From an uncultured Thermoplasmata archaeon (GTDB lineage: Archaea; Thermoplasmatota; Thermoplasmata; UBA10834), in contig CAVRDX010000001.1 in assembly GCA_963719945.1 (NCBI GenBank), positions 842,199 to 906,198 of the forward strand: a stretch of DNA of 64,000 nt. The letters are read 5' to 3'. Of the stretch, positions 18,119 to 60,473 are shown in pieces (the stretch's first letter is position 1; each line of letters begins with the position of its first letter). Position numbers and translations under genes: made by a program. The notes below the pieces were generated by a model, which was not told the DNA's origin, searched no databases, and worked only from the letters and a program-made list of their open reading frames with translations.

Positions 18119-19213
18119 TTACCTTCTGGAGGAGAAGTGCTCGTTGACCGTCAGTCTTGCGGCCTCGACCAGGTTCGACGGGGCGCTTTCGACCTCCTGC
18201 GCGTTGCTTGATGACGATTCGAGTATCTCGTCTCTGGCGATCCCAAGGAGACTGTCGACCCGATCTGATACGGATCCATCGATACTTGCTTTCCTGATCT
18301 CGATCGCATTGAGGAGTTCCATGAGTCGGCCGCCGTCCCACAACTTCGAACCGACGACGAACGACCTATGCTCGAGGCCCAGAATGGCCACTTTAAGATC
18401 GGCGATCGATCTGTCAAGATTCGTCTTCCGTTGCTCATGGGTACGAGTCGATTTGTCATTACCAGCCATGTGCATAAGGTCGAGCATGACATCGTTCGCT
18501 TCCGGGAAATCGGGATGCTCGAGATGAGGCCCGAGCAATAACAGCTCTCCTGATCCGAAGCGGCATCTTATGACGGCAGGTGCGCGGTCCAATACATTTC
18601 TCACCTCGTCATGCGACATATTCATCGTGGCTTGCTCTGCCATTCCAGCATATCTGATCAAGACTTCGTCATCATCCGGCTCAGTGAATACCGGTCCTCC
18701 GTACAATGGGGCGACCATCGAAGAGCCGTTTATGTCCAATAGGACACTTCCCCGTACAGGATGGAATATGCTGCAGCTTCCGTATCGCACGGCATATCTC
18801 GTAGTCGATGATTCGGCCATAGAAATGCCAGGTCGGATGTTGGTGATCCTGGTCTTCGAGATGTTGAACTGCTGAAATGGGGGTATCGAAGAGGGCAGCG
18901 GAAGATAGGCGCCCGCGCATATGCCTATGTACTGACCGCCGCTTCGGATGAATCCCTTCAGGTTTGAGAAACCTTTGCCGTTGAGGGCTTCCGCGATCTC
19001 AAAGCCGTCGCCCCCGGATATGATCACTCTCGAATAGGAACCTTCGATATCGCGCTGAAGATCGCTCTCGCTCGCGAACACTACGTTGAATATACCGCGA
19101 TTCTCGAACAGGTCCGCGAGCCATGTCCAAGAGTGCGAGGAACCCGAGCCCGCGTAGACCATTGTGCTGCGACTATTCCTGGGCACGAACACCGAAATGC
19201 TCCCTGGGCCCAT
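18119..19213 (-). CDS. BPL-N domain (class I glutamine amidotransferase-like) protein
   Basis: ISGGDG, GGQYIGICAGAY nucleophile elbow, YGGP, GPHLE; start uncertain. Confidence 0.8.
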   Translation of the reverse strand: MGPGSISVFVPRNSRSTMVYAGSGSSHSWTWLADLFENRGIFNVVFASESDLQRDIEGSYSRVIISGGDGFEIAEALNGKGFSNLKGFIRSGGQYIGICAGAYLPLPSSIPPFQQFNISKTRITNIRPGISMAESSTTRYAVRYGSCSIFHPVRGSVLLDINGSSMVAPLYGGPVFTEPDDDEVLIRYAGMAEQATMNMSHDEVRNVLDRAPAVIRCRFGSGELLLLGPHLEHPDFPEANDVMLDLMHMAGNDKSTRTHEQRKTNLDRSIADLKVAILGLEHRSFVVGSKLWDGGRLMELLNAIEIRKASIDGSVSDRVDSLLGIARDEILESSSSNAQEVESAPSNLVEAARLTVNEHFSSRR

Positions 19214-19294
19214 AAAGGGAGCGCAGAACACTGGCCCGAGCTTGGGGGCATAGAAAGTGTTATAGAACCCCTTGCCTTATCTCGCTCCCCACAA

Positions 19295-19395
19295 GGGCCC
19301 ATGGTCTAGCGGTTATGACACCTGCTTGACATCGCTTTTCCTCCGGGAAGGCGTCAAATTGCAGGTAATCACCGGTTCGAATCCGGTTGGGCCCA
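19295..19395 (+). tRNA. tRNA-Val(GAC) with 28-nt intron at position 37/38 (19332-19359)
   Basis: Acceptor GGGCCCA/TGGGCCC, anticodon stem CCTGC/GCAGG, GAC at 19328-19330, TTGAC/GTCAA bulge-helix-bulge pairing, GGTTCGAATCC; CCA not encoded. Confidence 0.95.
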
Positions 19396-19600
19396 CTATC
19401 TTCCTTCTGGCTATTTTCCAATCAGGGTCTTTTTGTACCGGGATATGAACCTTTTCATCGCCTTTCCTCGTGAAATCGATGGTTCAGGTTGCAACGCATG
19501 CAGAACCCGACAGACTGGCTGATTTCTATCGCAGGAAATTGACGACGATCTGGACCCCTTCTCAGCTTCTTTTCCTGCTATTGCTACAGAGGAATTAATG

Positions 19601-19624
19601 GGTGGACCGAAAGGGATTTGAACC
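19601..19624 (-). repeat. tRNA-Ala-like 3' fragment (att-like)
   Basis: Minus strand GGTTCAAATCCCTTTCGGTCCACC = T loop plus acceptor strand with U70; near-identical copy at 59056. Confidence 0.7.
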
Positions 19625-19679
19625 TCTGAAGTGCCAGTGTGTCAAGACTCGGATTCAATCAACGGGGAATTGGCCGGAG

Positions 19680-19862
19680 CTAACCCCCTTTCTTTTCCTT
19701 CAAATTCTTGTTCGGAGTGAAGATTCCAGCAGATGAACTAATCAAACCGATTCCGATAATGCCCACAACAGCTGCCACACCAGGTTCAATCTTACCCATC
19801 AACAATAGCCCTGAAGCGATTCCACAAATCACCAATCCAGTGATGAAAAGAATCTTAATCAT
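19680..19862 (-). CDS. Small 2-TM protein (60 aa)
   Basis: Two hydrophobic helices; preceded by the conserved cassette promoter. Confidence 0.65.
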   Translation of the reverse strand: MIKILFITGLVICGIASGLLLMGKIEPGVAAVVGIIGIGLISSSAGIFTPNKNLKEKKGG

Positions 19863-19882
19863 TGCCAGTCCCTCTCTTGGTC

Positions 19883-19937
19883 GAATCGCCTCAGGTGGTT
19901 TAAGGGTTTCTCCGGAGTCCCGCTCCTATGGCATTTT
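19883..19937 (-). repeat. Cassette arm plus promoter repeat, copy A
   Basis: + strand GAATCGCCTCAGGTGGTTTAAGGGTTTCT...CCGCTCCTATGGCATTTT matches the 59-63 kb copies. Confidence 0.75.
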
Positions 19938-20029
19938 CCGAGGCGAGGCTCAACCCCCCCCCCCCTTCCCTGTTTTCAGAACGGTACGAATTCTTATCTA
20001 TGAAGAACTCGATGAACAAAACGAAGGAA

Positions 20030-20374
20030 ATGATGCTATATCTGACAAGCTACAATCTGAAAGATGGGCGTGCTGGGGAATACTCTGCTTGGGTGAAGAA
20101 GAACAAGAAGAGCATACAGGACCATGCACCTCCGGGATGGAAGTTTCGCGGGATTTATGGATCTGTTCTGGGCTTTGGTCGGTATGATGTCACCGAGATA
20201 TGGGAGCTCAGGAAGTACGCTGACTTCGACACCTTCCGCGACTGGGACGACAAGGTCAGTCTCCGATTGCAGGCGGAAGCGCAAGACTTCATGCTACCCG
20301 GGGCGAATGAATCGACATTGCTTAGAGAAGTCAGCGATGTTGTGGTCATCGATCACAAGAAGCCGAAGAAGTGA
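20030..20374 (+). CDS. Hypothetical protein, possible dimeric alpha-beta barrel fold
   Basis: ATG 20030; GWKFRGIY...DVTEIWE..YADFD pattern. Confidence 0.65.
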   Translation: MMLYLTSYNLKDGRAGEYSAWVKKNKKSIQDHAPPGWKFRGIYGSVLGFGRYDVTEIWELRKYADFDTFRDWDDKVSLRLQAEAQDFMLPGANESTLLREVSDVVVIDHKKPKK

Positions 20375-20403
20375 ATCTAGTCGTCCTAAACCTTTTGGTC
20401 TTT

Positions 20404-20421
20404 CCGCCCCTATGGCCTTTT
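20404..20421. repeat. Cassette arm repeat, copy B
   Basis: CCGCCCCTATGGCCTTTT. Confidence 0.75.
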
Positions 20422-20756
20422 GCGCGCTCTCAGATGCGGTTCGAGGCGGGATTCGCCAAGACCGAATAACGACCGGTTCCAACGTCGTTGTCGCGACCGG
20501 TTACGACCTATCGTGACGCTCTATCGTGAAACACGATCTTCAAAGAGCTGTACTGGCGCCACCTGCTCGTCTGTAGCTCGTCTCATCTCGTGAGAACGGT
20601 GCGAGTGCCGGCACGCGCTTCGGACGCCTATTGATGCAAGGAATCATGAAGAGGAACAAGAAGGAGGAAAAGAAAAAGATCAAGAGGTTTCTCGGACTGG
20701 CCTTCTGCTATCGATAATGAATTAGAATCCGAGCCGCACTATCTGGCCGCGCACGA

Positions 20757-20807
20757 GTTCAGGCCCGGTTGGGCCCACTACATCTTATCTGGCTAAATTC
20801 TAATCAG
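20757..20807 (+). repeat. Copy 1 of tRNA-Val 3' end plus trailer (att-like)
   Basis: GTTCAGGCCCGGTTGGGCCCACTA...CTGGCTA...AATCAG versus tRNA GTTCGAATCCGGTTGGGCCCACTA...CTGGCTA...AATCAG. Confidence 0.85.
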
Positions 20808-20913
20808 CGTTTTGGGTTTTTCGCAACAGGTGCTTCCCAGGCTGTCGCATGAGGGAGAACGCGGGTTCGAATTTAATCAGTGACAGAGCGTCTATATTAC
20901 CACGGACACCATT

Positions 20914-21525
20914 ATGGGTCCGAGGGGAAAAATGGCGGGGTCGTCGGGAAACTCGAAGAGCAGTGTAATTCTGACGTTCGTCGCAGTGTTCTTCGTTATG
21001 GCATCAGCATGGATGACATGGTACACCATCTCCAACGAGCATACGACTGTGTCCGAGTATTGGCTGGACCACTTCGATCCGGAATGGGGCAATTATGGAG
21101 TCGAGACATATGACATCTATGACCAGGTTGACGAAGTGATGTTGGGACTGAAGTTTTTCACCATTCTGTGGTTCCTTGCAGCTCTATTCTTTGTGGGTCA
21201 AATCATGACAGACAAATCCGGTCCTATCAGGGAAATCATCGCGGGTGCAACTCCTATTGCTTTGGGCATTGGGATGCTGGCATACTTTGCACTAGCGTTC
21301 CCTGGAGCTTGTCCTTCACCGTTAGTCTCAGGATTCTTTTCGAGCACAACGGTCGGCGGCGTCGTGTATACAGGAAGCCCCGGAGGAGGATTTTATCTGG
21401 TTGCAGTAGCCTGTGTATTTCAGGCATTGGCAGTAACGCTTCGTTTCAAATCAGTCTTCTCAAAACCGCGTTCGCCTGAACCCACCGCATGCGAGGCTCG
21501 CGTTGGCACGGAACCCCCGAAGTGA
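20914..21525 (+). CDS. Hypothetical 4-TM membrane protein
   Basis: Four hydrophobic segments; sole gene between two att-like repeats. Confidence 0.75.
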   Translation: MGPRGKMAGSSGNSKSSVILTFVAVFFVMASAWMTWYTISNEHTTVSEYWLDHFDPEWGNYGVETYDIYDQVDEVMLGLKFFTILWFLAALFFVGQIMTDKSGPIREIIAGATPIALGIGMLAYFALAFPGACPSPLVSGFFSSTTVGGVVYTGSPGGGFYLVAVACVFQALAVTLRFKSVFSKPRSPEPTACEARVGTEPPK

Positions 21526-21663
21526 GCTGCATCATATCCGACGGATCAGACCTAATGAAATTTCGTGCAGAGAAGGTTTGAGGAAGGAAAGAAGAAAATG
21601 ATCTGCTGCGTTCCACCTCGAAATCCCCAGATTGCAGATTAGATTACAGCTAGTGTGCCCTAC

Positions 21664-21685
21664 TCGAATCGGGTTGGGCCCACTA
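21664..21685 (+). repeat. Copy 2 of tRNA-Val 3' end (att-like)
   Basis: TCGAATCGGGTTGGGCCCACTA, 21/22 identical to 19377-19398. Confidence 0.88.
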
Positions 21686-21927
21686 CATATTCTTGCCAGA
21701 TAATGGACTACAGGATTCAGACCGCATGATTTCGCATACTTCGAAGTCTTGAGCCTTTATGCTGAATGACGCTTGGTTCGGGACCAAATAGACCCACTCT
21801 TGAGACGTTTTGAATACATAGAGAATGCGAGCCGAGAACCATGGAATTCAAGACCATTCCACGATGGTCGTATGTTTCGATGCAAATAGAGGCACATTAA
21901 TGCACAACAAGTGATAGGGAATCGACA

Positions 21928-22467
21928 TCAAATCACAAGATCATCCCATATCTCAAGGAACCCGTCAGTCAGGCTTGTCAGCTGTGGATTGAATCGCAAT
22001 AGTATCTTCTCGATTCTTGCGGGATCAGAAATGAGATACTCAGAAGTGTTGCCATTCCTGGAAACCACACCGACTGCAAGGAGTTTCTCAAGGTGGTGAC
22101 TAACCGTGGATGGTGATTTCCTGACGCCATGAACAATCTCTCCGTGAGTCATAGCTCCATTCCTCAGGATTAGAATCGTGATTCTGAACGGGACCCGTTG
22201 CCTCAGAAGACTTACAATGCGCTTATCAGGGGCACTGAAATGGCTCCAGTCTGCACCAATGGCGTCCCTCGGAAAGTAACGCTTGTACTGTCCATCCTGA
22301 ATGGAATATACAAGCTCGCGCTTCTCAAGATAAAGGAGATGATAGTCGACCAGGTTCGCGGAGAGTCTGACCTCCCTGCCAATCTCCCTGAGATGCATGC
22401 CAGGATACTTGCAGACTGCATCGAATATCCGGCGACGACTATCCAGTTCAAGCGCGAGCTCGTTCAA
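21928..22467 (-). CDS. Double winged-HTH transcriptional regulator
   Basis: PGMHLREIGR..LVDYHL and KSPSTVSHHLEKL; SD GGAGG before TTG. Confidence 0.85.
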   Translation of the reverse strand: MNELALELDSRRRIFDAVCKYPGMHLREIGREVRLSANLVDYHLLYLEKRELVYSIQDGQYKRYFPRDAIGADWSHFSAPDKRIVSLLRQRVPFRITILILRNGAMTHGEIVHGVRKSPSTVSHHLEKLLAVGVVSRNGNTSEYLISDPARIEKILLRFNPQLTSLTDGFLEIWDDLVI

Positions 22468-22477
22468 GAGAAACCTC

Positions 22478-22738
22478 CTAGGGTTTCAATGTCGCCAGAA
22501 AGATTGATGCAAGAATGCCAATATCCAATAGCCCAGATGTAATCCATAGGTTGGTATCATTGAGGACGTCGGTGAACAACTGGACGGACAACAGAATACC
22601 TTTCGCGAAGAACAACATGAATGCGAAAACAATCAGCAGAGTCTTCGATTTCCCAGATTCTCTAAATGCCTTGGCCGCAATGATAGCCAGTGTGAGCGAG
22701 AAGATCACGATAAACGCATAGACCAAATTCTCAAGCAT
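22478..22738 (-). CDS. Small 3-TM protein co-transcribed with the regulator
   Basis: Three hydrophobic helices; SD GGAGGAG. Confidence 0.75.
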   Translation of the reverse strand: MLENLVYAFIVIFSLTLAIIAAKAFRESGKSKTLLIVFAFMLFFAKGILLSVQLFTDVLNDTNLWITSGLLDIGILASIFLATLKP

Positions 22739-22775
22739 AGAAACTCCTCCATATCAAGGGGAATGTGGTTGCTCC

Positions 22776-23792
22776 TTAATGATTCCTTGAGCTACGATCA
22801 CGTTTCACAAATGCAATGGACATAACAACGATACCAGAGGCTACTCCGAGACCAGACAGATAGAGCACTGGATCTGGACTTAGATCATCTGAATCCGAAT
22901 AGTAGGTCATGTTGCTTCGAACCTTGAAAACAACATCCTGGATCAGAGTATTCGCCTTCGGATAGGACAACGTGAGATTTCCTTCATCCCAACTACCTGC
23001 GGCTCCCAATCCTATTGTGCTGCCATCAACGCACATGCTATTCCTCCACTGGATAGACCCGCCTGCGAAAGGCTGAGCTGTCGTTATGTTCAATAATATG
23101 CCAGTATTAGATTCAAGATATGACATTCCCGCGCTTGACTGGGACCGGATCAATATCCTTACTCCAATCGCATTGCTCTCATCCGAGAAGTTGTAACGCG
23201 AGATTCTCAGACTCATATGAATCTCAGTTGGATCAATATCACCGCCTAAAGTGAAGAACACATAATTCGAATTTGTGACGAAGACCAGCGTAACCAGCCC
23301 GTCCTCGGATATTGCAGTGTAGGTGGTTCTAGTTCCCCAATCCGGCGTATTCTCGCATAATGGTTGGGACAGTGTGAATCTCTCATTCGAGATATCAACG
23401 CTGGAGATCACAGAGTCCTCAGGACCAAAGGAAGTGCTTCCATTGTTCTGGAATTCGAAGACCGACAATATCGAGAAACTCATGCTCCAATTTAGCGGGC
23501 CAGGCACATAGATACCGTTGGCCAATTCATTGAAGTCGCTGGGGATCAGAATAGGGGAGCTTTGACGGATATAATCGATATCGAAGGTCCCATCAGAAAA
23601 TGATGCGAGAAATGCATCAGGACTATTGGATTTTGACTGTGTCGATAATGCATAGAACTCGTCTGAAGTTGAAACAGCAACGCCAGATCGTCCTGCAGGC
23701 AGATCACTCGCAGCAACCGAGCAGGATACCATGATAAGAACTGCCATTGTAACAACCGACATGCAGCCAAATGCCCCATTTCTTCGAACCAT
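22776..23792 (-). CDS. Secreted protein with C-terminal membrane anchor
   Basis: Signal-like N-terminus, Ser/Asn-rich beta region, DP motif before a C-terminal TM and basic tail; start uncertain. Confidence 0.7.
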   Translation of the reverse strand: MVRRNGAFGCMSVVTMAVLIMVSCSVAASDLPAGRSGVAVSTSDEFYALSTQSKSNSPDAFLASFSDGTFDIDYIRQSSPILIPSDFNELANGIYVPGPLNWSMSFSILSVFEFQNNGSTSFGPEDSVISSVDISNERFTLSQPLCENTPDWGTRTTYTAISEDGLVTLVFVTNSNYVFFTLGGDIDPTEIHMSLRISRYNFSDESNAIGVRILIRSQSSAGMSYLESNTGILLNITTAQPFAGGSIQWRNSMCVDGSTIGLGAAGSWDEGNLTLSYPKANTLIQDVVFKVRSNMTYYSDSDDLSPDPVLYLSGLGVASGIVVMSIAFVKRDRSSRNH

Positions 23793-23991
23793 ATATAACA
23801 TGAAAAACAGGGGGCTCGTGAATATAATACGGTTATTGGACAACGGTCGAATTCGAACGAACTTGATAGGCTATATGAGCGACCCTTCACGCGAATATAT
23901 TCGTTTGATAGAAATATGAAAGGGTTTATGGGCTGGCCCTGGAAATTCAGATTGGATTGGAATCAAAAATACACTGCCTGGCCTACGGTTT

Positions 23992-24042
23992 GTTCAGGCC
24001 CGATTGGGCCCACTATAGCCCTTCCAGCCATTTTTCAATCAG
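23992..24042 (+). repeat. Copy 3 of tRNA-Val 3' end plus trailer (att-like)
   Basis: GTTCAGGCCCGATTGGGCCCACTAT...TTTTTCAATCAG. Confidence 0.85.
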
Positions 24043-24223
24043 ACGGTATCGCGCGCCGAGAAGAATGACTATTGCGCATTCATCGTCCATAGCGCTTGGA
24101 GACCCTCAGACAACTCCTGACGTCGGCTATCTCGTCGGACCATTCAATCTGAATCATTGTCCAGATCGCAGCGTTTCGAGAAATGATCCTGGCACGCCAA
24201 TAGGAATGCTGAGCCCATTCTTC

Positions 24224-24958
24224 TCAATTCCACCAGTGGATATCATCATTCAACTCTTCGCTATGCCAAGAATAGAATTTGCCATCGTGCAGCGCGCAAC
24301 TATACTCGCCCCAATATGCGTACACCGACTGAGGTGGCGCATAGACGAGGGCAAATCGATAGATGACATCGTTCCAGATAGATGGTGATTCGAAGAGAAT
24401 ACTATCCCCTTGATTGAATTCCCCATCCCCGATGATATCGGTAATGATGAAACTATGGATATCGGCAGATACTTGCGTTCCTGAACTCAGCATTTCTTGA
24501 ATTGTGAGATTCGCAAGAGGAAATACGGTATATCCGATTGCACCATCGCTGATTGCCCCGCAATAACATTGCATATATGTGTAGTTAGTAGCGATGGACG
24601 GATCCAAATTCGAGACCCATTCAATTCCTTCATCGGTCAGGATTAGTGGCGTATCTTCGGAGGGATATGGTGGCCAAATGTAACTCTCAAGGTTCCATGA
24701 ATATGCGAGAATGCAGCTCAGCACCAACATGGCAGCGATTGCGAGAATAATAGTCCGTCGAGGACCACTCTTCAGATTCTCTCGGATGAATTCACGAATG
24801 ACTTCGGTGTCAGACATCCGTTTCTGAGATGATTCATTCGTCACAAATAGGAGCGCGCCGCATGATATGCAGAACTCCATAGCATCATGATTCTCAGTAG
24901 CGCATCTCGGGCACTTTATCAGACTTCCCACAACCGTATGTGGAATGTCATCGAGCAA
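24224..24958 (-). CDS. Zinc ribbon, TM and extracellular domain protein
   Basis: CPRC..N....FCISCG, one TM, DIIGDGEFNQGD; start uncertain. Confidence 0.75.
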   Translation of the reverse strand: MLDDIPHTVVGSLIKCPRCATENHDAMEFCISCGALLFVTNESSQKRMSDTEVIREFIRENLKSGPRRTIILAIAAMLVLSCILAYSWNLESYIWPPYPSEDTPLILTDEGIEWVSNLDPSIATNYTYMQCYCGAISDGAIGYTVFPLANLTIQEMLSSGTQVSADIHSFIITDIIGDGEFNQGDSILFESPSIWNDVIYRFALVYAPPQSVYAYWGEYSCALHDGKFYSWHSEELNDDIHWWN

Positions 24959-25087
24959 TATCTTCTTTTCTCTCTATCTGTACCAAAGAGAGTGGCTCTG
25001 ATCATCAACTGGTTCACACCTATCCCAGTTCGCGCACACATTCTCGATTGTGGCTGCGGAATCCCACAAGAAAGGAGATATCCATCC

Positions 25088-25603
25088 ATGATAGTACAGG
25101 AAGATGCGATGGAAGACACAATCACGTGCCCAGCCTGCGGCACATTAATCAGGTCGGATTCAACGTTCTGCAGATCCTGCGGAAAGTCGATCAGGAAATG
25201 CCCGAGCTGCAGCTCCATCATCCTTGAGGGGGTCATGTTCTGTCCGAATTGCGAGACGCCGCTTTTTCAGACAAATGAACATTCGGAGACTTCACCGCAG
25301 AATGTCGATTCGGAGACTACACACCTCATATGGGAAGGGGTTCCGTTTTCCGGGCTGCAAAAGACATCCCAGACCAAGCGCCAGTGGAGGATAACAGTCG
25401 TGATATTCGCGACATACGCGATCGCCTGTATATTGATGATCGCATGGATCATGCTGAAGAAATCCACTGAAGACGTGTGCTGTATCTCGGGGTTTGTCAT
25501 CGGATTGGCATTCTTCAGTGCATTCACCTTGTGGGTCAGATATTGGGTTGGTCGAAGCGGGGCTGAACACGAAGAGCGCAAGAAGTGGAAAGATCCATTG
25601 TAG
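25088..25603 (+). CDS. Double zinc-ribbon protein with 2 C-terminal TMs
   Basis: CPACG/FCRSCG/CPSC/FCPNC; SD AGGAG before ATG 25088. Confidence 0.75.
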   Translation: MIVQEDAMEDTITCPACGTLIRSDSTFCRSCGKSIRKCPSCSSIILEGVMFCPNCETPLFQTNEHSETSPQNVDSETTHLIWEGVPFSGLQKTSQTKRQWRITVVIFATYAIACILMIAWIMLKKSTEDVCCISGFVIGLAFFSAFTLWVRYWVGRSGAEHEERKKWKDPL

Positions 25604-25707
25604 GCAAATTGAGCCACCGCACAGCCTACGACTTCTCGTGTCGGCGGGAGATACGATTCAGCCATGAACGCACAGGTTGAATCCTTCCAAGAAGATCAGG
25701 CGATGAT

Positions 25708-26223
25708 TCAGAGGAAGATGCTATCGAGTTCCTGCAGACTCGCGGTATCGCATATCTCTTCCGCGAACCGTACATGCTCCTCATTAGCCGACGCCACGCC
25801 CCCTTTTAGCAGGTAGGGACGGATGTCCCAGTCAGGAGCGCTGAAGTAAGTCGCCAGCACACACCCGCTCGCACTAAGCCCCACAATCACCAGAGCGTCA
25901 CATCCTTCTTTCTTGAGCATAGCTCCAAACTCGGGATTGCCAAAGGCGCTCGCATGAAGCTTCGTGGCCTTCAGGTCGGTCTTCTCGATCTTGACCGTCT
26001 CCGGGACTTCGAAACGTCTTGTCCCTGGCAGCAATCCGTCCTCCTTATCCTCGGTATATCCCACGACGATAGGGAACTTGTTCCTTCTGAACCAAGCGAT
26101 CGCGTCGTTGATGACATCAAGGCGCATCTCCACGGACTTCCTCAAGTCCTGGTTGCTATCAGGGTCGTACAACCAGACATTCTGTATATCCTGGACGAGT
26201 AATGCGGGTTTCATTTCACTCAT
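25708..26223 (-). CDS. Isochorismatase-family cysteine hydrolase
   Basis: ALLVQDIQN, K..ASAF, VGLSASGCV (D-K-C triad). Confidence 0.88.
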   Translation of the reverse strand: MSEMKPALLVQDIQNVWLYDPDSNQDLRKSVEMRLDVINDAIAWFRRNKFPIVVGYTEDKEDGLLPGTRRFEVPETVKIEKTDLKATKLHASAFGNPEFGAMLKKEGCDALVIVGLSASGCVLATYFSAPDWDIRPYLLKGGVASANEEHVRFAEEICDTASLQELDSIFL

Positions 26224-26378
26224 CCTTGAAATGCGTCTGCCATTAATATTGATTATTGATATGTCTGGTCAGGCAATAGTCGCATCTCAATTGAGGAAAA
26301 GAGGAGACGTCCAGACGATACTCGTTTTACTAACATGAGCATGCTCATGACTTCAATTGAAGATAGAAATTGCAGCCG

Positions 26379-27437
26379 CTAACAATTGATATCCCTTCTA
26401 TAGAGAGAGATAACGGTTATGCCAACCAATATGCCTGTCAGTACTGCCAGGAATAATGCACTCAGCAATGGATCAGGATAAAATTCATAATACGGGACAG
26501 ACCCGTTCAGATCGATGATATCCTGAGGATAGTCATCGAGAAGAAGCGATCGATTGATTGTCTCCGCAGCGAATGATGGTAGGAACCATGGTTTGACACC
26601 ACCTGAGATTAGAATCTGCTGAAGGATCGGAAACAATGCGATGAGGAGCAGAAAAGCGAATACGATAGATCCTGTTGAATTCTTCGAAATAGAACTGATG
26701 GCATAGGCAAAGGCCAGGCATGCTGCGAAATATAGCAATGACAATGCCAACGAGATCAGAAGGTAATCAGGGAGAGTCCCGAGCCCAGAGTATATTAGAG
26801 CAGACATTGCCAGATAGAATGAGACGATTGCCACTATTCCAACCATCAGGCTTGCGATGAATTTGCCAATCACGATAGCGATTCGTTTCACAGGATTCGG
26901 ATATACAAGATATGCAGTTCGATTCTGTATCTCGCCTGCGAGCGAATCCGAGCCAACGAGAATCGCGATTATCACAATCATATAAGGGAGAATGATCATC
27001 AGCTTATCGGCCATTTCGATTGGATAGTACCCCCAATCATAGGTGACTTCGAGCATATTATCACTGAGGTCTGATTTAAACAATATCGGACCATCTGCAT
27101 ATAGCCAATCATCTACTGAAATCAGAGTGCCGTTGAGCCTGATTTCGATGCTCTCTGGAAAGATCCGCCAATTGAGATAATAGATCATTGAATGATATCC
27201 GGTGGAGTATTCGCTCTCAACAGGAGCAGGCATTATGAATTCGACAGAGTGACCGGAATACTCGTCGCCAAATGCAAGAGGCAAGTAGTACAGCATCAGG
27301 ACGATACCGACGGAAAGTGCCATGATTGAGACGAACCTGAACCCTTTGATATATCTGATGAGTTCGAGACGGGCAATCACAGAGATCTGTGCCAAATCGG
27401 AGGGAACTCTTGATCCAGGAACCTTCCGGTCAGTCAT
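26379..27437 (-). CDS. ABC-2 type transporter permease
   Basis: AGEIQNRT..YPNPVKR..IGKF motif; multiple TMs. Confidence 0.88.
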   Translation of the reverse strand: MTDRKVPGSRVPSDLAQISVIARLELIRYIKGFRFVSIMALSVGIVLMLYYLPLAFGDEYSGHSVEFIMPAPVESEYSTGYHSMIYYLNWRIFPESIEIRLNGTLISVDDWLYADGPILFKSDLSDNMLEVTYDWGYYPIEMADKLMIILPYMIVIIAILVGSDSLAGEIQNRTAYLVYPNPVKRIAIVIGKFIASLMVGIVAIVSFYLAMSALIYSGLGTLPDYLLISLALSLLYFAACLAFAYAISSISKNSTGSIVFAFLLLIALFPILQQILISGGVKPWFLPSFAAETINRSLLLDDYPQDIIDLNGSVPYYEFYPDPLLSALFLAVLTGILVGITVISLYRRDINC

Positions 27438-28383
27438 ACTGCTCAGCCTCCGACTCGGCGATCCTGTCGAGGTATATGCTCTCGAGAGAGGGACCGCGAG
27501 GGACGAACGAACTGACGGATAATCCCAACGACATCAATAAGCGCAAGATATTGTGCCTATTCGCAACATCTCCGTTCGAGCAGCTGATCCTGAATATCGT
27601 CGGAGACAACGATTCAACGGAGATAATCCCGTCCAGCTCATTGATTCGGCCTCGAACTTCAGGAGATGGAGCGGTGGCGAATTCGACTTCGATAATGCAG
27701 GATTTAGATATCTGTTTTAGATTCTCGATGTCATCATAGAGAAGGAGCCGCCCATGATCGATTAGCGCTATGGAATCGCATATCTCCTGCACCTCATTCA
27801 GCATATGGGAGTTCAGGAGAATCGTGATCTTCATGGATCTCAGAGTCTTCAGGATTCCCCTGATGTGAACCATACCAGTCGGGTCGAGCCCGCTCGTGGG
27901 TTCATCGAGAATCAGTACGGTAGGTTCGTGAAGCAATGCCTGAGCAAGGGCCAGTCTCTGCTTCATCCCCTTTGAGAATCCGCCCACCCTCGAATCTGCC
28001 CTATCCGACAGCTTGAATTCTTTCAGCAATTCGGTTGTTCTGCTACGGATGAGGACATCATCCATACCTCTGAGCTGGCCAAGGAATCTCAGAATCCTCA
28101 CAGGTGTGAGCTGAGGGTAGAACTCAGGGCTCTCAACGACCGAACCTACATCGGACAGAGCAACCTTGGGTTCCTTCCGAACCTCGATGTCATTGATATA
28201 CGCAGTCCCTGAGGTCGGCGAAACCAGATTCGTCAGTATCTTGGCGGTGGTCGTCTTCCCCGCTCCATTCGGCCCGAGAAATCCTAAGACCGAACCATGA
28301 GGAACATTCAAAGATAGATGATCGACGGCGACCAGCGATCCAGAATATACCTTCGTCAGATTCTCTATCCTTATCGAACCCAT
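27430..28383 (-). CDS. ABC transporter ATP-binding protein
   Basis: GPNGAGKT, FSKGMKQR, LILDEPTSGLD. Confidence 0.95.
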   Translation of the reverse strand: MGSIRIENLTKVYSGSLVAVDHLSLNVPHGSVLGFLGPNGAGKTTTAKILTNLVSPTSGTAYINDIEVRKEPKVALSDVGSVVESPEFYPQLTPVRILRFLGQLRGMDDVLIRSRTTELLKEFKLSDRADSRVGGFSKGMKQRLALAQALLHEPTVLILDEPTSGLDPTGMVHIRGILKTLRSMKITILLNSHMLNEVQEICDSIALIDHGRLLLYDDIENLKQISKSCIIEVEFATAPSPEVRGRINELDGIISVESLSPTIFRISCSNGDVANRHNILRLLMSLGLSVSSFVPRGPSLESIYLDRIAESEAEQYD

Positions 28384-28650
28384 CCCATCAGCCCGAGATA
28401 CATGCCTTGAGCTACATGAGAGCAACATCGTGAGGATATTATGCTTTCGGGATGTAGATTCCAGGGACTGGGAAGTGCTAGCCCTTGCATCAGGATTCTG
28501 AGGAGAATCCTGTGTAGATCGAAGGCGTTAGAGCATGATGATTTTAGATTGAAAGTCCCGAAAGAATCATATCGCGCGATTGTGCTATTTGACCTCGGTC
28601 AGCGTCCGATCTTCGACCTTTGGGGGGGTCTGATTAGACGCTGAGGGGGA

Positions 28651-29886
28651 ATGACAAGAATGAGGAGTGGTTCGAGTTTAGGAGCGGTAGCGGTCCTTGT
28701 GATCATGCTCGCCCTAGGCCTTTCTTCACCGATGTCTGCGGGCGACGGCGAGAAGGCCTGGACGGTTATGATATACCTGGACGCGGACAACAATCTCGAA
28801 GACGCTGCATGGATGAACATGGAGTGGCTCGAGAGTGTTGGGTCGGATGAGAATGTGAACTTCTTGGTACTGTTGGATACGCTCTCAGGCAAGACTGACC
28901 TCCTGTATGTGGAACACGAAGTGTCCACACCAGTGGGGAAGGACTATGGCTATCCAAAAGAAGAGAATATGGGAGATCCTGCGGTGCTTCAGAAGTTCAT
29001 AGAGATCGGCATCGAGGATTATCCTGCGTTGTACTACGCGGTCATCCTGTGGGATCATGGTGGCGGATGGAGAGGAATCTGCTGGGATGATTCATACGAG
29101 GAAGACACAGGAATAGAGGATTGCATCACGATGTCGGAGATGAGAGAGGCGTTCGCAGGCGCTTGCGATGCAAAGGATGAGATCATAGACATCGTCGGAT
29201 TCGATGCATGTCTGATGGCGATGCCTGAGGTATCCTACGAGTTGAGAGACTACGCAAAATACGTCATATTCAGCGAGGAGACGATCTACGGAACCAGCTT
29301 CCCGTACGAGATGATTGCGCAGGACCTCGTGGACGAGCCGACGATGGACCCACTGGCATGCGTCAGAATGATGGCCGAGGATTACAGCGAATTCTATCTG
29401 ACCAACAACGGGTACCCGGACTGGACGATCAGCATCATGGACATGGATTATATGAGTGAGGTCACAGCGGCTGTGGACTACCTCGGGGAGGAGCTCCTCG
29501 AGTCCCTGCCATACTACTTCAACGCTTACCAGAACGCGAGGGTCATGTCTGACGAATACTACTACTTCTACAACATAGATCTGCGCAACTTCGTGGACAA
29601 TCTGTTGGTGGACCCAGTCATCAAAGACAAAGGCATCAGGGAAGCCGCGATGCAAGTGGATAAGGCGATCGGTGACAGCATAATACTGTGCCTGAACAGC
29701 TTCCACAACCGCGATTCCGAAGGTCTCGCAATATACTTCCCATACGCGCCTGGAAGCACTATTGCAGGCCTGAAGCCCGAGTATGAAGACATATCCTTCG
29801 CGAAGACGGGTACCAGCTGGTACGACTTCGTCGAGGCGTTCTCCAAGTTCACGGGACGCGCATGGGGAGGGGCGAAATTCGCCTAG
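28651..29886 (+). CDS. Secreted clostripain-family (C11) cysteine peptidase
   Basis: Signal peptide, WTVMIYLDADNNL, WDHGGG (His), GFDACLM (Cys), GLAIYFP. Confidence 0.92.
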   Translation: MTRMRSGSSLGAVAVLVIMLALGLSSPMSAGDGEKAWTVMIYLDADNNLEDAAWMNMEWLESVGSDENVNFLVLLDTLSGKTDLLYVEHEVSTPVGKDYGYPKEENMGDPAVLQKFIEIGIEDYPALYYAVILWDHGGGWRGICWDDSYEEDTGIEDCITMSEMREAFAGACDAKDEIIDIVGFDACLMAMPEVSYELRDYAKYVIFSEETIYGTSFPYEMIAQDLVDEPTMDPLACVRMMAEDYSEFYLTNNGYPDWTISIMDMDYMSEVTAAVDYLGEELLESLPYYFNAYQNARVMSDEYYYFYNIDLRNFVDNLLVDPVIKDKGIREAAMQVDKAIGDSIILCLNSFHNRDSEGLAIYFPYAPGSTIAGLKPEYEDISFAKTGTSWYDFVEAFSKFTGRAWGGAKFA

Positions 29887-30030
29887 ATGAGCCCATGGAA
29901 ACCGGTCAAACCATTTCCATCACTTTTCCATCATGAACAGGTTTCAATCGATATTCGGGATAACCTGAAAATGCTTTCATGCGCATGATATGAAAGAGAT
30001 GATTCGGAAAGACCCTAGGAGGGCTTTCGT

Positions 30031-30510
30031 ATGAGTGAGATAGCGACATTTGCAGCGGGGTGCTTCTGGGGCGTCGAAGCAATATTCAGAAAGGTCCATG
30101 GAGTCATATCCACCCGTGTCGGATACACGGGTGGGAAGACGGATCGGCCTACATACAATCAGGTCTGTTCGGACAGCACAGGCCATGCTGAAGCGGTCGA
30201 AGTCGAATTCGATCCGAGTATGGTCGCATACGGTCATTTGCTGGAGATATTCTGGGACATGCACGACCCGACTACCCTGAACAGGCAGGGACCCGATAGA
30301 GGGACGCAATACAGGTCAGCCATATTCTTTCACAATCCGGAACAGAAGAGGCTAGCCGAAGAATCTCTGAGCGCGCTCGCGCGATCAGACCGATTCACTC
30401 GGAGGAAGATAGTGACTGAGATCGCGGAAGCGGAAGTCTTCTGGCCTGCAGAGGAGTACCATCAACGGTACTTCGAGAAGACTGGAAGAAACAGTTGCGG
30501 GATCCATTGA
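30031..30510 (+). CDS. msrA: Peptide methionine (S)-sulfoxide reductase
   Basis: GCFWG, GYTGG, GHAE, AEEYHQ. Confidence 0.97.
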   Translation: MSEIATFAAGCFWGVEAIFRKVHGVISTRVGYTGGKTDRPTYNQVCSDSTGHAEAVEVEFDPSMVAYGHLLEIFWDMHDPTTLNRQGPDRGTQYRSAIFFHNPEQKRLAEESLSALARSDRFTRRKIVTEIAEAEVFWPAEEYHQRYFEKTGRNSCGIH

Positions 30511-30623
30511 TGCCCTATGTGCATGCCATTTTGACTATCTTTGTTCAGAAAGAACTATTTGACTGATGCTTTTAACCCTGGCAGAGGCATGCCGATTCAG
30601 CCTACTGACGGATTCGAGGCCGT

Positions 30624-32417
30624 TTGATGTTCAGTGACATCCAGAAATCATTGCGAGGCTACATTCGGAGCGAGTTCCTGGGAGAATACGCCAGGCTCAA
30701 CATAATCGCGGCCATGATCGGAGCATTTGCCGCGCTCATCGCAATAGGTTTCAGATGGCTCATCCTGGCATTCCAGGAATTCTTCTTCGTTGGCGGAAAC
30801 CCATTGAACAACGAACTCGGGCTCTGGGTCTTCGCGGTCCCCATGATTGGGGCGGTGTTCGTCGGCATGATCGCCTACTGGCTCGCACCTGAGGTCAAGG
30901 GGGCAGGCGTGGCAGAGGTCATGCGAGGCCTGATGGCGGACAAGGGGAGGTTCAGGGCGAGGGTGCCTGCACTCAAGGCGCTCGCTTCCGCGATCACGCT
31001 TGGTTCGGGTGGCTCCGCAGGCAGAGAAGGGCCGATAGTCCAGATAGGGGCGTCCTTCGCGTCAGTGGTCGGTCAGAAGTTCAAGATGACCACGACCGAG
31101 GTGAGGATAATGGTGGCTTGCGGTGCAGCTGCGGGTATAACGGCCACGTTCAACACTCCCATTGCTGGTGCTGTCTTCGCACTCGAGCTGCTTCTGCTGG
31201 AGTTCAGGACGAGATCGTTCATCCCACTCGTCATATCGACGGTGTTTGCGACACTCGTCTCGAGAGTGTTCCTAGGCGACTATCCCACCTTCTCGGTCGA
31301 ATTGACATACTCGCTCGTGAGCCCTTACGAGCTAGCGTTCTATCTGGTGCTCGGGTTGCTCGCAGGGGTCGTTGGAGTAATATTCATCAAGATGCTCTAC
31401 AAGATGGAGGACGTGTTCGATGCGCTCTCAGTGCCAGGCTATGCCAAACCGGTCATAGGCGTCGCGATGGTAGGCGCCATCGGTCTGTTCTATCCGAGTG
31501 TGTTGGGCGTCGGATATGATACGGTAACAGCAGCACTCAACGGACACCTCGACCAGCTGTTCGACGTCAGGATGCTCGGACTGTTCGTCGTCGTTGTGCT
31601 CATACTCAAACTTATTGCCACATCTCTGACGATATCATCCGGGAACGCAGGTGGCGTATTCGGCCCGTCATTGTTCCTTGGTGCCATGCTCGGTGCAGCA
31701 TTCGGGATTGCTGCCAACCAGTTCTTCCCGAACATGACAGCGGAGTACGGCGCATATGCGCTCGTCGGAATGGCTGCGGTATTCGCGTCCACCGCAAGAG
31801 CGACTCTAACAGCCATATTGATGCTGTTCGAGATGACATCGAGCTACGAGATCATCCTGCCCCTGATGTTCGCGTGCGTCGTCAGCGATGCCGTGAGCAG
31901 CATGCTGTCCAAAGAGACGATATACACTGCGAAGCTGGCCAAGCAGGGGATACGGTATGTCCATGATCTATCGGCGAACATATTGGAGGCCGCGAAGGTC
32001 AAGGAGGCGATGGATATCAAATTCGTCTCGCTGGCCCCGGACACGCCACTCAGGAAGGTCGTGGACCTTCAGCTCTACAGCGGCAAGAAAGGATATCCAG
32101 TGGTCTCATCAGATGGCAAGTTAAAGGGCATAGTCACTCTGACGGACGTGCGGAAAGCATTCGAGAGCGGCAAACAGGATTCGACCGTGAGCGACATCAT
32201 GACCAAGAGGATAGTGACCGTGTATCCCGAAGAGACGCTTCAAGTGGCGATGGAGAAGATGGTCCTGAGGAAGATAGGTCATCTGCCAGTGGTGGATCCG
32301 GCCAAGCCTAACAGGATCATCGCCATGATAGATAGGGAAGCCATCCTTGACAGGTACAGAGGCGTCCTGGCAGAAGAGGTATCGGAGGAGTCCCTCCAGG
32401 GCAGACTCATGGAATGA
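30624..32417 (+). CDS. ClC-family chloride channel/antiporter with two CBS domains
   Basis: GAGVAE, GREGP, FNTPIAG, GGVFGP, IYT; C-terminal CBS pair. Confidence 0.93.
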   Translation: MMFSDIQKSLRGYIRSEFLGEYARLNIIAAMIGAFAALIAIGFRWLILAFQEFFFVGGNPLNNELGLWVFAVPMIGAVFVGMIAYWLAPEVKGAGVAEVMRGLMADKGRFRARVPALKALASAITLGSGGSAGREGPIVQIGASFASVVGQKFKMTTTEVRIMVACGAAAGITATFNTPIAGAVFALELLLLEFRTRSFIPLVISTVFATLVSRVFLGDYPTFSVELTYSLVSPYELAFYLVLGLLAGVVGVIFIKMLYKMEDVFDALSVPGYAKPVIGVAMVGAIGLFYPSVLGVGYDTVTAALNGHLDQLFDVRMLGLFVVVVLILKLIATSLTISSGNAGGVFGPSLFLGAMLGAAFGIAANQFFPNMTAEYGAYALVGMAAVFASTARATLTAILMLFEMTSSYEIILPLMFACVVSDAVSSMLSKETIYTAKLAKQGIRYVHDLSANILEAAKVKEAMDIKFVSLAPDTPLRKVVDLQLYSGKKGYPVVSSDGKLKGIVTLTDVRKAFESGKQDSTVSDIMTKRIVTVYPEETLQVAMEKMVLRKIGHLPVVDPAKPNRIIAMIDREAILDRYRGVLAEEVSEESLQGRLME

Positions 32418-58293: not shown

Positions 58294-58378
58294 GCAGGGA
58301 TAGCCAAGCCTGGTCAACGGCGCTAGATTCAGGGTCTAGTCGTGAAGGCGTTCGCCGGTTCAAATCCGGCTCCCTGCA
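58294..58378 (+). tRNA. tRNA-Leu(CAG)
   Basis: GCAGGGA/TCCCTGC acceptor, CTAGA-TTCAGGG-TCTAG anticodon arm, long variable arm, GGTTCAAATCC; upstream TTTATA. Confidence 0.96.
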
Positions 58379-59055
58379 CTTTGCCGATACTGGCTTTTCG
58401 TCAATCAAGGGTTTTTAGCTACGAGCTAAACTCCTTACTCCTTTTTTATTCTGCAACCAGGATTTCATGTGAAACCGGCCCCAAATCGCCCTGCAGGGAT
58501 GATCCGTCTTTTCCCTCTATTATCCCTCTCGAGACCGAGAGGCATCCGAGACGGACCCGAGAGGGAACGCGCAGAGATCGTAATTGCAGAGCCGGAAATC
58601 CCTCTCTCGTCCCTCTTCTTCCCTCTTTTCGGGAGAGTATCAAATTTCCGTGTAAAAGACGGATGTTCTACGTGAGGAAGCGCACTCCTATCGATACAAG
58701 CGCGATTATCACGCTCGCAACCACAACAATAATCCAAAACCGCATTCGCACTCTGCGATTGTTTGCCAACACGGATACGGGCACATTCCACCACGCAAGG
58801 ATATGCCCTCCATCAAGGAGCGGCCTGTCCCTATAGGACCCCCCGCTCCATCCATCTGCCTTTCTGATATGGACAGATCCCGCCGTCTCTGATGGAGCTT
58901 ATCGTAGTCGATGAGGACCTTCGACTCGATAATCATCTTCCCGCGGGAGGACTTCCTTGTCCGTTCCTCAGGTAGCATGTCATCATAGTATTCTCTTGCC
59001 TGATTAAGCAGTTAACTCAGGAATCCCAATCCGATAGAGTTCTAATCGAAATGGA

Positions 59056-59079
59056 GTGGACCGAAGGGGATTTCAACCC
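59056..59079 (-). repeat. tRNA-Ala-like 3' fragment (att-like)
   Basis: Minus strand GGGTTGAAATCCCCTTCGGTCCAC. Confidence 0.7.
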
Positions 59080-59211
59080 ACATTTTCGACTGGCTCGGCT
59101 GAAAAAGGTACATAGTCCTTCCAGAAAGGCATCTCGGGAAGGGTAACGAAAAGGAGGGGTTAATTGCCCCTCGCCTAACCCCTTCTCTTTCCCAATAATC
59201 CGCTAATTTCA

Positions 59212-59361
59212 TTAGGAGAGAATAGCAAAAAGCACTATCGCCACAATCGGCCCTACAACTCCGACCAGAAACATCAGCACATATTGCAGATTGACATCCT
59301 TAGTGAATCTGTTCTTCACCCCCGCTGAGGTTCCGTCATTCGTCGGTATATCCCTGGCCAT
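59212..59361 (-). CDS. Small single-TM peptide (49 aa), not in ORF track
   Basis: MARDIPTNDGTSAGVKNRFTKDVNLQYVLMFLVGVVGPIVAIVLFAILS; SD GGAG. Confidence 0.55.
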   Translation of the reverse strand: MARDIPTNDGTSAGVKNRFTKDVNLQYVLMFLVGVVGPIVAIVLFAILS

Positions 59362-59414
59362 CGACTCTCCGTCAAGTGATGAGATTCTATGGGCATACGC
59401 TTTTCGGTGGCATC

Positions 59415-59441
59415 CCGACTCTATGGCCTTTTCTCACGAAT
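59415..59441. repeat. Cassette arm repeat, copy C
   Basis: CCGACTCTATGGCCTTTTCTCACGAAT. Confidence 0.7.
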
Positions 59442-59654
59442 GACAATAAGAATATTCACGCACGAATATAAATTGACCCTGTGGGATTAGGAATCACAAG
59501 ACTAACTGGCTCACACCCCAAAATGCCCTTGTTAGGGCATCTTCGCCGAGGAGACGGATTGAAAGATAGACCAAAACCCGTTGTTCTTTTAGAGGGGTAT
59601 ATGCCCCTCATCAAACCCCTTCTTTTTCCTCCAGCTCAACGGTCGCCCAGCATT

Positions 59655-60077
59655 CTAGTAGCTGAGCTGCCATCCAACACTGCCGAGTGGGAATATGTTG
59701 ATCTGCAGTACCTGTCCATCGCTCAGTAGATACGGACACACCAGATCTTGTCCTGGCAAGACATCATATCTGAACATGATTGCCGCCGCATCGAATCCGT
59801 TGAACTTGTGAATCTCACTCCCATTGGATGCCAGCGTCCCACTGGCCAACATCACTCCTGTGTGGGCGTAATAGATCTCATACTGGACATCGTTTGGATA
59901 GCTCAGGCTGTCGACCTGTATCGTGGCTTTCTCCACGAACACATCAGTATAGAAGTACGCTAGTGCAAGTGATGCCAACACAATCACAGCAATCACCGCT
60001 GCAGCCAGCTTGACCGATCTGGACTTGCCCTTGTCAGTGAAGGACTTCCTGTTTTCTGCGATGTCAATCTGCCCCAA
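59655..60077 (-). CDS. Single-TM protein with extracellular beta domain
   Basis: TTG 60077 after GGAGG and the cassette promoter; the longer track ORF overlaps another gene. Confidence 0.7.
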   Translation of the reverse strand: MGQIDIAENRKSFTDKGKSRSVKLAAAVIAVIVLASLALAYFYTDVFVEKATIQVDSLSYPNDVQYEIYYAHTGVMLASGTLASNGSEIHKFNGFDAAAIMFRYDVLPGQDLVCPYLLSDGQVLQINIFPLGSVGWQLSY

Positions 60078-60097
60078 TGCCACATCCTCCAATGTCC

Positions 60098-60127
60098 GAA
60101 TCGCTATCGGTGGCTTAATGGCTTCTC
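60098..60127 (-). promoter_or_regulatory. Cassette promoter repeat
   Basis: Minus GAGAAGCCATTAAGCCACCGATAGCGATTC (BRE-TATA-like). Confidence 0.75.
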
Positions 60128-60439
60128 TCATCCAGATGGTTTGCGCCCGCATCGAGGGCAGTAGACCGCATCGGGTGCTTGGGGCGAACCACAGTATGAG
60201 CAGAACGACCCTTGACCAATTGGCTGTTGGGAATGGATTAGTCCCTGGGGTTGATAACCTTGATTGGGTGGCGGTCCATATTGATACATAACCGTAGGTG
60301 GTTTCTCGCTCTGCACAAAGCCGATTATCATAATGACCAACCCGACAATTACGAGTATCCCTCCCAAACAGCAGAGCCATCCGAAAATGATCCCGACAAC
60401 AATTAGGACTAGGCCAATCACCACTGTGTTGGTTTTCAA
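60128..60439 (-). CDS. 2-TM protein with C-terminal zinc ribbon
   Basis: TTG start, 2 TMs, Pro/Gln linker, FCSYCG..YCPRCG. Confidence 0.75.
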   Translation of the reverse strand: MKTNTVVIGLVLIVVGIIFGWLCCLGGILVIVGLVIMIIGFVQSEKPPTVMYQYGPPPNQGYQPQGLIHSQQPIGQGSFCSYCGSPQAPDAVYCPRCGRKPSG

Positions 60440-60473
60440 CCACCGACACCAGAGGCGGATTGATCCTGGGCAT

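Follow-up and report, generated by a model that had tools for sequence, protein, structure and literature searches.

The window analysed here, a 64-kb stretch of DNA from an uncultured Thermoplasmata archaeon, contains a row of small units directly behind the gene for tRNA-Val(GAC), each closed by a copy of the 3' end of that tRNA. We conclude that this array was built by repeated site-specific integration and that its units are decayed or hybrid derivatives of integrase-bearing elements. Most probably, it is a tandem series of remnants of tRNA-Val-integrating elements that are flanked by attachment (att) sites and lack an integrase, comparable to the cis-mobilisable elements (CIMEs) of bacteria. 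The source genome is a metagenome-assembled genome (MAG) of 1.78 Mb in four contigs that is 87% complete, and the array sits inside a contig of 906 kb. It was compared across the 46 genomes of the family (labels G0xx), among them the sister species G005 (65% complete) and the complete genome G018, and with individual loci and metagenome contigs (labels L0xx and L1xx).

Core repeats behind tRNA-Val(GAC)

The anchor of the array is an intron-containing tRNA gene, which is missed by ARAGORN at default settings and found only if introns are allowed. The gene and its 3' end are:

19295-19396, + strand: tRNA-Val(GAC) with a 28-nt intron after position 37 (Rfam RF00005, 58.2 bits; ARAGORN with introns: anticodon gac, i(38,28))
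19383-19397, + strand: attL, i.e. the recombination core, the last 15 nt of tRNA-Val(GAC)

A first-pass annotation of the window had reported three tandem copies of the tRNA-Val 3' end, with homology extending past the tRNA and, for copies 1 and 3, also upstream. All three observations are borne out. A 12-base core is found exactly four times in the window, always on the + strand (19387, 20769, 21674 and 24004), as compared to 0.18 expected matches (mean of dinucleotide shuffles), and none of 100 shuffles reaches four. The 15-mer with at most one mismatch starts at 19383, 20765, 21670 and 24000, and the spacings from core start to core start are 1382, 905 and 2330 bp. In addition to these three copies of the tRNA end there is a fourth, decayed one at 21786-21797. 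Beyond the core, at a distance of 8-10 nt, a 19-nt arm motif recurs at 19407, 20789 (3 mismatches) and 24024 (4 mismatches), and upstream of the core copies 1 and 3 have an arm of ~70 nt in common. Thus, an intact tRNA gene stands at one end of the array and direct repeats of its 3' end mark the unit borders, which is the hallmark of a tandem tRNA-integrated array. The G+C content of the units ranges from 0.46 to 0.50, as compared to 0.55 in the flanking DNA.

Comparison with relatives places the start of the variable DNA at the tRNA. In nine congeneric species the genes upstream of the tRNA, the nearest of which belongs to the BPL_N family (Pfam), are kept at 72-92% DNA identity, and divergence starts at the first bases 3' of the tRNA. 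From there onward the content varies between relatives unit by unit, exactly at the repeats, as seen for units 1 and 3; both this unit-wise presence or absence and the repeated site-specific integration at tRNA-Val had been anticipated in the first-pass annotation.

As the genome is a MAG, repeats could in principle confuse the assembly graph, so that strain variants with one unit each would be chained at a short repeat. We regard such an artefact as extremely improbable: the exact shared stretch measures only 12-22 nt and its flanks differ, the array lies within the 906-kb contig, and arrays of several units like this one are seen both in complete genomes of a single contig and in metagenome contigs assembled independently.

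The centre of the core (19388-19395, 8 nt of the acceptor stem) and its copies form a perfect palindrome. Recombination at a palindromic core may be possible in either orientation, leading to inversions, and inverted core or arm copies are present in some relatives (G042:C17, 6850 on the + and 9279 on the - strand; G001:C16, 177-279).

Arm types and identity of the attachment sites

Same-strand pairs or triplets of the core, 0.75-28 kb apart, are common in the 46 genomes of the family. The alignment of junctions suggested earlier was carried out with 60 core junctions from these genomes, and to the left of the distal cores a small number of arm types can be distinguished, several of which can be matched to integrase-bearing elements. 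Type A1, present on copies 1 and 3 of the window, is recognised by four blocks of conserved sequence (about -70, -48, -24 and -10 relative to the core). The same motif layout is found at the distal end (attR) of a 27.8-kb element in G018. The attL of this element has mirror-image A1 blocks and an intact gene for a tyrosine integrase of 405 aa, whose stop codon lies 40 nt from the tRNA-Val(TAC) core, and in G043 a homologous integrase of 393 aa (69% identity to that of G018) is placed likewise at tRNA-Val(GAC). The two genes are located at 8252-9466 of L061 and at 654-1832 of L119, respectively. Type A2 consists of the 19-nt motif and ~50 further bases; in the window it makes up the arm nearest the tRNA in units 1 and 2 as well as the trailer that follows copy 3. 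In inverse orientation A2 serves as P arm in G010 (L024, near 10003) and also follows directly past the stop codon of an integrase gene on contig 2 of the window genome. In G012 and G010 the A2 arms beside the Val core overlap the 3' end of integrase genes whose products are 46-49% identical to this contig-2 enzyme. Type B, the third family, has other arms and is used at tRNA-Ile(GAT) and tRNA-Val genes.

Since the flanking arms match those bordering integrase-bearing elements of up to 28 kb at tRNA-Val genes of relatives, the repeats of the window can be identified as att sites used by two or more integrase lineages, whose attP sites are roughly palindromic around the core taken from the tRNA end. 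The units can therefore not be assigned to one family of mini-elements, as had been assumed at first: at least three types of arm occur at their ends (A1, A2 and a palindromic one), relatives have the same arms at the borders of elements that encode an integrase and reach 27.8 kb in size, the ends of unit 1 are hybrid, and unit 2 contains the remnant of an integrase gene. Moreover, C-terminal stumps of integrases, 28 to ~140 residues in length, adjoin such cores in at least eight related arrays, which suggests as a rule for the arrays of relatives that the integrase gene decays from its 5' side and that the arm overlapping its 3' end is retained.

Unit 1 in two species

The unit next to the tRNA gene is composed as follows:

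19398-20764, + strand: unit 1, 1.4 kb, no integrase, hybrid ends; two open reading frames (ORFs), for a membrane-like protein of 60 aa (19680-19862, - strand) and for a protein of 124/148 aa (from 20000 or 19928 to 20374, + strand)
19407-19574, + strand: A2 arm module, P' side of unit 1, a widespread docking-arm module of ~165 nt
19601-19692, - strand: nested att half-site of tRNA-Ala(TGC) type, a copy of a tRNA-Ala 3' end (19601-19629) with an A1-like arm
20664-20779, + strand: A1-type P arm of unit 1 with core copy 1 (20765-20779), 96.5% identical over 115 bp to the distal att site of a 13-kb island in G022 (L063)

The window sequence 19368-20779 is 99.65% identical over 1412 bp to a region of contig 2 of the sister species G005, as compared to 89.5% DNA identity (86-90% at the protein level) of the host flanks. 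In G005 unit 1 stands alone at the tRNA-Val(TAC) gene, enclosed by two copies of the core; beyond it come a host-type trailer and host DNA unrelated to the window. Only five differences separate the two versions, namely one base in the T-loop of the host tRNA (19379, left of the crossover), three substitutions and one change in the length of a run of 12 C. At the proximal junction of G005 the base past the core is of element type, at the distal junction of host type, and the exchange therefore took place within the 15-nt block of identity. Thus, unit 1 evidently moved recently, as a unit without integrase, between species and between isoacceptor tRNA genes.

The ends of unit 1 are hybrid, the left arm being of type A2 and the right arm of type A1, as would be expected if two neighbouring elements were co-excised via their outer att sites. 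The motif layout of 20664-20779 is common to the attR of the 27.8-kb G018 element and eight other distal att sites, and copies of the A2 module with 75-92% identity occur at many loci in at least ten related genomes, usually beside an inverted core resembling tRNA-Leu(CAG). Altogether, unit 1 is a mosaic of A2 module, nested tRNA-Ala half-site, two small ORFs and A1 module, the parts of which can each be found separately elsewhere in the order. The 29 nt at 19601-19629 match the 3' ends of tRNA-Ala(TGC) in six relatives at 93% and also match the genome's own tRNA-Ala(TGC) (C1:84877-84904). As an A1-like arm and a tRNA-Ala core are nested in unit 1 and recur elsewhere, arm modules appear to combine with different tRNA cores. 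A gene for a tRNA or another RNA in the stretch 19600-19700 was considered and rejected, there being no Rfam match at E values up to 1; the region is the tRNA-Ala 3'-end copy. A piece of ~95 nt of this half-site recurs in many relatives, in some of them beside tRNA-Ala or tRNA-Pro genes.

The ORFs of unit 1 have no match in Pfam, PHROG or NCBIfam scans; for the 124-aa protein there is one homologue with 67% identity in the genome contigs, in a non-tRNA context. The run of 12 C (19954-19965) lies in the 5' part of the ORF 19928-20374, and the one-base length difference to G005 shifts the frame of the N-terminal extension and leaves the shorter ORF from 20000 unaffected. The 124-aa gene is flanked by two copies of a motif of ~35 nt that ends in the start-codon-like ATGGC (19905-19940 and 20389-20424). 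Only five further copies exist in the genome (59415, 61685, 62404, C1:479408 and C1:88202), and all seven are located inside tRNA-linked islands. The motif looks like a shared promoter and leaderless start of an element family, but a role in recombination may be an alternative.

Mini-unit and unit 3 in distant genomes

The third of the original units, said to hold three cargo genes, is in fact made up of a 114-bp mini-unit without cargo and a three-gene unit of 2.2 kb, as a decayed core separates the two:

21685-21797, + strand: mini-unit, 114 bp, no cargo, A1 P' arm fused to a degenerate P arm, with the decayed core 21786-21797 at its end
21798-24014, + strand: unit 3, with a three-gene operon on the - strand, ending in an A1 P arm and core copy 3 (24000-24014)
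21928-22467, - strand: ArsR-type regulator of 179 aa, double winged-helix (Pfam HTH_5 and HVO_0163 N-terminal HTH)
22478-22738, - strand: membrane protein of 86 aa
22776-23843, - strand: secreted or anchored protein of 355 aa
24015-24042, + strand: A2-like trailer behind core copy 3, with 86% identity to the one directly behind tRNA-Val(GAC) in G005; the type is also found 3' of the tRNA in G001 and 3' of unit 3 in L124

The mini-unit aligns column for column with an arrangement of tRNA core, 114 bp and second core in G022 (L063) and in the metagenome contigs L122 and L124. In L122/L123 and L124/L125 the unit 3 genes stand directly behind tRNA-Val(GAC), and the upstream genes (BPL_N, NarI-like and CCG-domain) are those of the window. 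The layout in L122 and L124, i.e. tRNA core, 114 bp, slightly degenerate second core, three genes, A1 arm and core, corresponds to that of the window past copy 2. Over 2100 bp, the window sequence 21924-24014 and L122 6842-4747 have 80.9% identity, and their alignment stops exactly at the distal core. In these distant metagenome genomes the three proteins of unit 3 are 81-87% identical to those of the window, whereas adjacent core proteins are 40%, 58% and 69% identical. Homologues of the 355-aa protein are present in metagenomes. Unit 3 is absent from the closest relatives G005, G006 and G010, and among the 45 other genomes of the family its only homologues are two weak ones with 27-28% identity. 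From these comparisons, mini-unit and unit 3 appear to have entered or been exchanged as one att-bounded block, and unit 3 evidently moved between species as an integrase-less unit.

The unit 3 operon is also found without any att site, in L126, and its cargo thus exists outside units as well. Distant homologues of the cargo proteins of unit 3 and unit 2 lie less than 300 bp from tRNA-Ala genes in L083 and L089 (G021:C63 and G001:C60); such accessory genes seem to travel in tRNA-linked islands generally.

Unit 2 and the decay of integrase genes

The unit between core copies 1 and 2 documents the loss of an integrase gene:

20780-21669, + strand: unit 2, 0.9 kb, with an A2 arm, an integrase-gene stump (~20808-20868, - strand) and a gene for a multi-pass membrane protein of 203 aa (20914-21525, + strand)
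21628-21684, + strand: palindromic P arm of unit 2 with core copy 2 (21670-21684); its left arm is a degenerate inverted core copy

The sequence 20765-20868, which is 91.5% identical to G010 L024 10020-10124, can be aligned to the terminal part of the integrase ORFs in G010 and G012, i.e. the tail past the catalytic Tyr. About 22 codons are left, with a 1-nt frameshift, and the homology ends short of the Tyr codons; the stump is detected only by DNA homology to relatives and not by tblastn. Since this integrase 3' end is truncated and frameshifted, unit 2 is best understood as a deletion derivative of an integrase-bearing element. Its palindromic arm, in which an inverted 14-mer with 3 mismatches lies at 21664 on the - strand, is of a type also present in G001, G005 and G020. 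Hence the original description of integrase-free units with two, one and three cargo genes is correct in so far as the array has no integrase, but it overlooked the stump in unit 2 and the composite nature of the third unit.

The stump raises the question whether all units are inert fossils, each the product of in-place decay of a separate full-size integrase-bearing element that has not moved since it lost its integrase. The stumps of varied length beside cores in many relatives and the lack of a cognate integrase in the genome would be in line with this explanation. We nevertheless consider it unlikely: the 1.4-kb structure of unit 1, hybrid ends included, is found at 99.7% identity behind two different tRNA-Val genes, one in each of two species, and identical decay that occurred independently is implausible; moreover, the boundaries of unit 3 and the mini-unit are common to distant genomes, yet both are missing from the closest relatives. 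The first-pass annotation had set its mini-elements against units that are deletion remnants of integrase-bearing elements. Such remnants are what we find for unit 2 and what is plausible for the others, but units 1 and 3 evidently moved without an integrase of their own. For unit 2 the origin by decay can be read from the stump; for units 1 and 3 it is suggested by the homology of their arms.

Search for the responsible integrase

No integrase was found in the array by a PF00589 search of the genome and by tblastn of 19000-31000 with three related integrases (best E value 0.13). The PF00589 search of the genome yielded a XerA-like protein (C1:430395) and the contig-2 integrase, a protein of 365 aa, encoded at C2:21651-22745, that is the only non-Xer integrase of this genome and 33% identical to the G018 enzyme. 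It is also the best match in the genome to the A1- and A2-Val-type integrases, with 35% and 49% identity, respectively. Beside its gene lies an arm motif of A2 type, as in the P' arms of units 1 and 2; the adjoining core, however, derives from the 3' end of tRNA-Leu(CAG) and not from tRNA-Val. The enzyme therefore seems to belong to a tRNA-Leu element and is probably not the cognate enzyme of the array. The enzyme that moved unit 1 may thus have come from an element that is now lost or unassembled, or a resident enzyme with shared arm specificity may have acted.

The window also contains tRNA-Leu(CAG) itself (58294-58379), followed by an A2-type arm (region 58380-64000), and the corresponding distal junction on contig 2 (C2:21651-22826) has an inverse A2 arm and an exact 20-nt copy of the tRNA-Leu 3' end right past the intact integrase gene. 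An integrase-bearing element inserted at tRNA-Leu(CAG) seems to bridge the end of contig 1 and contig 2.

Several observations weigh against the interpretation as mobile att-flanked remnants. The search for a cognate integrase proposed at the outset did not recover an intact integrase of the A1 or A2 tRNA-Val type in either the window genome (87% complete) or G005 (65% complete), and in the genus only integrase stumps are found beside Val cores. Units 1 and 3 contain no detectable integrase remnant, so that only their arms speak for an origin by decay. The higher identity of the unit 3 proteins could in part reflect constraint rather than transfer. Finally, no free copy was found of an internal word of unit 1 in metagenome and viral contigs or of its P arm in metagenome contigs, a search that counts only exact matches and is hence uninformative.

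Model for the formation of the array

Based on these findings we suggest that elements with a tyrosine integrase of 365-405 residues recombine their attP, i.e. a core identical to the last ~15 nt of tRNA-Val with roughly palindromic arm motifs on both sides, with the 3' end of a tRNA-Val gene. Integration would restore the tRNA and leave a second core copy at the far end. Newcomers would again use the intact tRNA gene and displace older units outward, giving an age order in which unit 1 is the newest, followed by unit 2 and then by the 114-bp mini-unit with unit 3; such an order, with the youngest unit adjoining the tRNA, is in line with integration into the intact gene. Deletions and the co-excision of neighbouring elements would remove integrase genes and yield hybrid ends. 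As both att sites survive, units could still be excised and re-inserted, with an integrase provided in trans or by an adjacent functional element that was lost later. We infer the acting integrase, the excision and circle steps and the vehicle between cells.

This scheme resembles the CIME model developed for the ICESt1/ICESt3 family of streptococci (Pavlovic 2004; Bellanger 2011; via PMC5704250), which comprises integration, decay, re-integration at a retained att site and possible composite transfer. Both systems have units without integration genes that keep attL and attR and are arranged in tandem at the 3' end of a target gene. In the window attL and attR are kept and integration and transfer genes are lacking, just as defined for CIMEs; at least one unit of a tandem array would be expected to encode an integrase, and here only the stump of ~22 codons in unit 2 is seen. 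In contrast to CIMEs, the host is an archaeon without known conjugation, the units measure only 0.1-2.3 kb, the integrases belong to uncharacterised Thermoplasmata families with roughly palindromic arms, and mobilisation is deduced from comparative data.

Among integrated elements of archaea, tandem integration at one locus and loss of the integrase after integration have been described (PMC8371274, citing Krupovic 2010/2019 and Badel 2019), and the window shares with them tyrosine-recombinase elements at tRNA genes, tandem arrangement and integrase loss. The cases described, however, come from Thermococcales, Methanococcales, Sulfolobales and Thaumarchaeota and concern proviruses or plasmids several kb in size. 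A limited literature search yielded no description of kb-sized integrase-less units shared between Thermoplasmata species. An SSV-type (suicidal) integrase element can be dismissed, as the integrated elements of relatives keep whole integrase ORFs with the stop 34-60 nt outside the core, and a transposon or miniature inverted-repeat transposable element was likewise rejected.

Islands and tycheposons of Prochlorococcus also adjoin tRNA genes and contain partial tRNAs and fragmented integrases, and successive integrations push older elements deeper into the island (bioRxiv 10.1101/2020.12.28.424599). Tycheposons, however, encode their own integrase and replication modules, and the integrase-less material of Prochlorococcus lacks clear boundaries, whereas the units of the window keep precise att sites.

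With its small cassettes that follow one another and each end in a recombination site, the array is also reminiscent of mobile integrons. One might thus imagine a dedicated capture platform, i.e. purpose-built mini-cassettes with docking sites that a host-resident recombinase puts at tRNA genes for adaptive gene shuffling. The small size of the units with their intact cargo ORFs, the perfectly kept 12-nt cores and the recurrence of the arm modules at many loci fit this idea. It is quite unlikely, though, given that neither a recombinase nor a common promoter stands beside the array, that the cargo lies on both strands, that the arms are those of ordinary integrase-bearing elements, that one unit contains the end of an integrase pseudogene and that the unit ends are of mixed types. 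An integron proper was rejected, as the array is headed by neither intI nor attI nor a common promoter (Pc) and its recombination sites are cores from a tRNA end flanked by arms instead of attC hairpins.

With this array of att-flanked remnants, the model of accretion and cis-mobilisation developed for Firmicutes can be applied to archaea as well; no new principle comes to light, only an archaeal case of a known way of island building. The locus illustrates, in a cleanly resolved and datable form, the entry of accessory genes into the small genomes of uncultured Thermoplasmata and indicates that units without an integrase can still spread between species and isoacceptor tRNA genes. What it adds is comparative evidence of integrase-less movement, a truncated integrase gene that documents decay, and an age order along the array. 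Should the integrases at work be identified, the short att sites (15-nt core plus arms) could become genetic tools for archaea, and such arrays could mark recent gene flow. One may go further and regard kb-sized integrase-less units as a general means of gene exchange in Thermoplasmata, with modular arms (A1, A2 and others) that can be combined with different tRNA cores, circulating between species and being slotted behind many tRNAs by integrases acting in trans; they would then be a functional archaeal counterpart of integron cassette traffic rather than mere debris. We hold this generalisation to be doubtful.

Outer part of the variable region

The first-pass annotation let the island end at 24042. 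The variable region continues, however, to ~25665 and probably to ~30020, where, in comparison with relatives, the conserved downstream genes pick up again; inserted DNA thus reaches from 19398 to at least ~25665. Next to core copy 3 lies the following block:

24043-25665: variable block with two genes for zinc-ribbon membrane proteins (24224-24958, - strand, and 24887-25603, + strand; Pfam zinc-ribbon matches)

Together with the ArsR-type regulator, these zinc ribbons are the only cargo of the array recognisable in PHROG, NCBIfam and Pfam scans. The block is missing in G005 and G006, and one of its genes has a homologue with 55% identity in G010, beside the conserved flank. A distal att site of the block, searched for as a core copy with up to three mismatches, was not found. 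The genes from 25665 up to 30020 are likewise variable and no att copy bounds them in the window. In a sister genus the isochorismatase gene, located at 25708-26223 in the window, follows directly behind the tRNA, within ~35 nt, and in the metagenome contig L124 this gene itself stands between two core copies. As the outer block is variable and unbounded and isochorismatase is enclosed by cores in L124, the whole stretch to ~30 kb is probably an old array with decayed outer sites. The segment between the two cores of L124 (2744-4798) contains the isochorismatase gene together with an ACT-domain gene, so that what appears elsewhere as the native neighbour of the tRNA may be old cargo.

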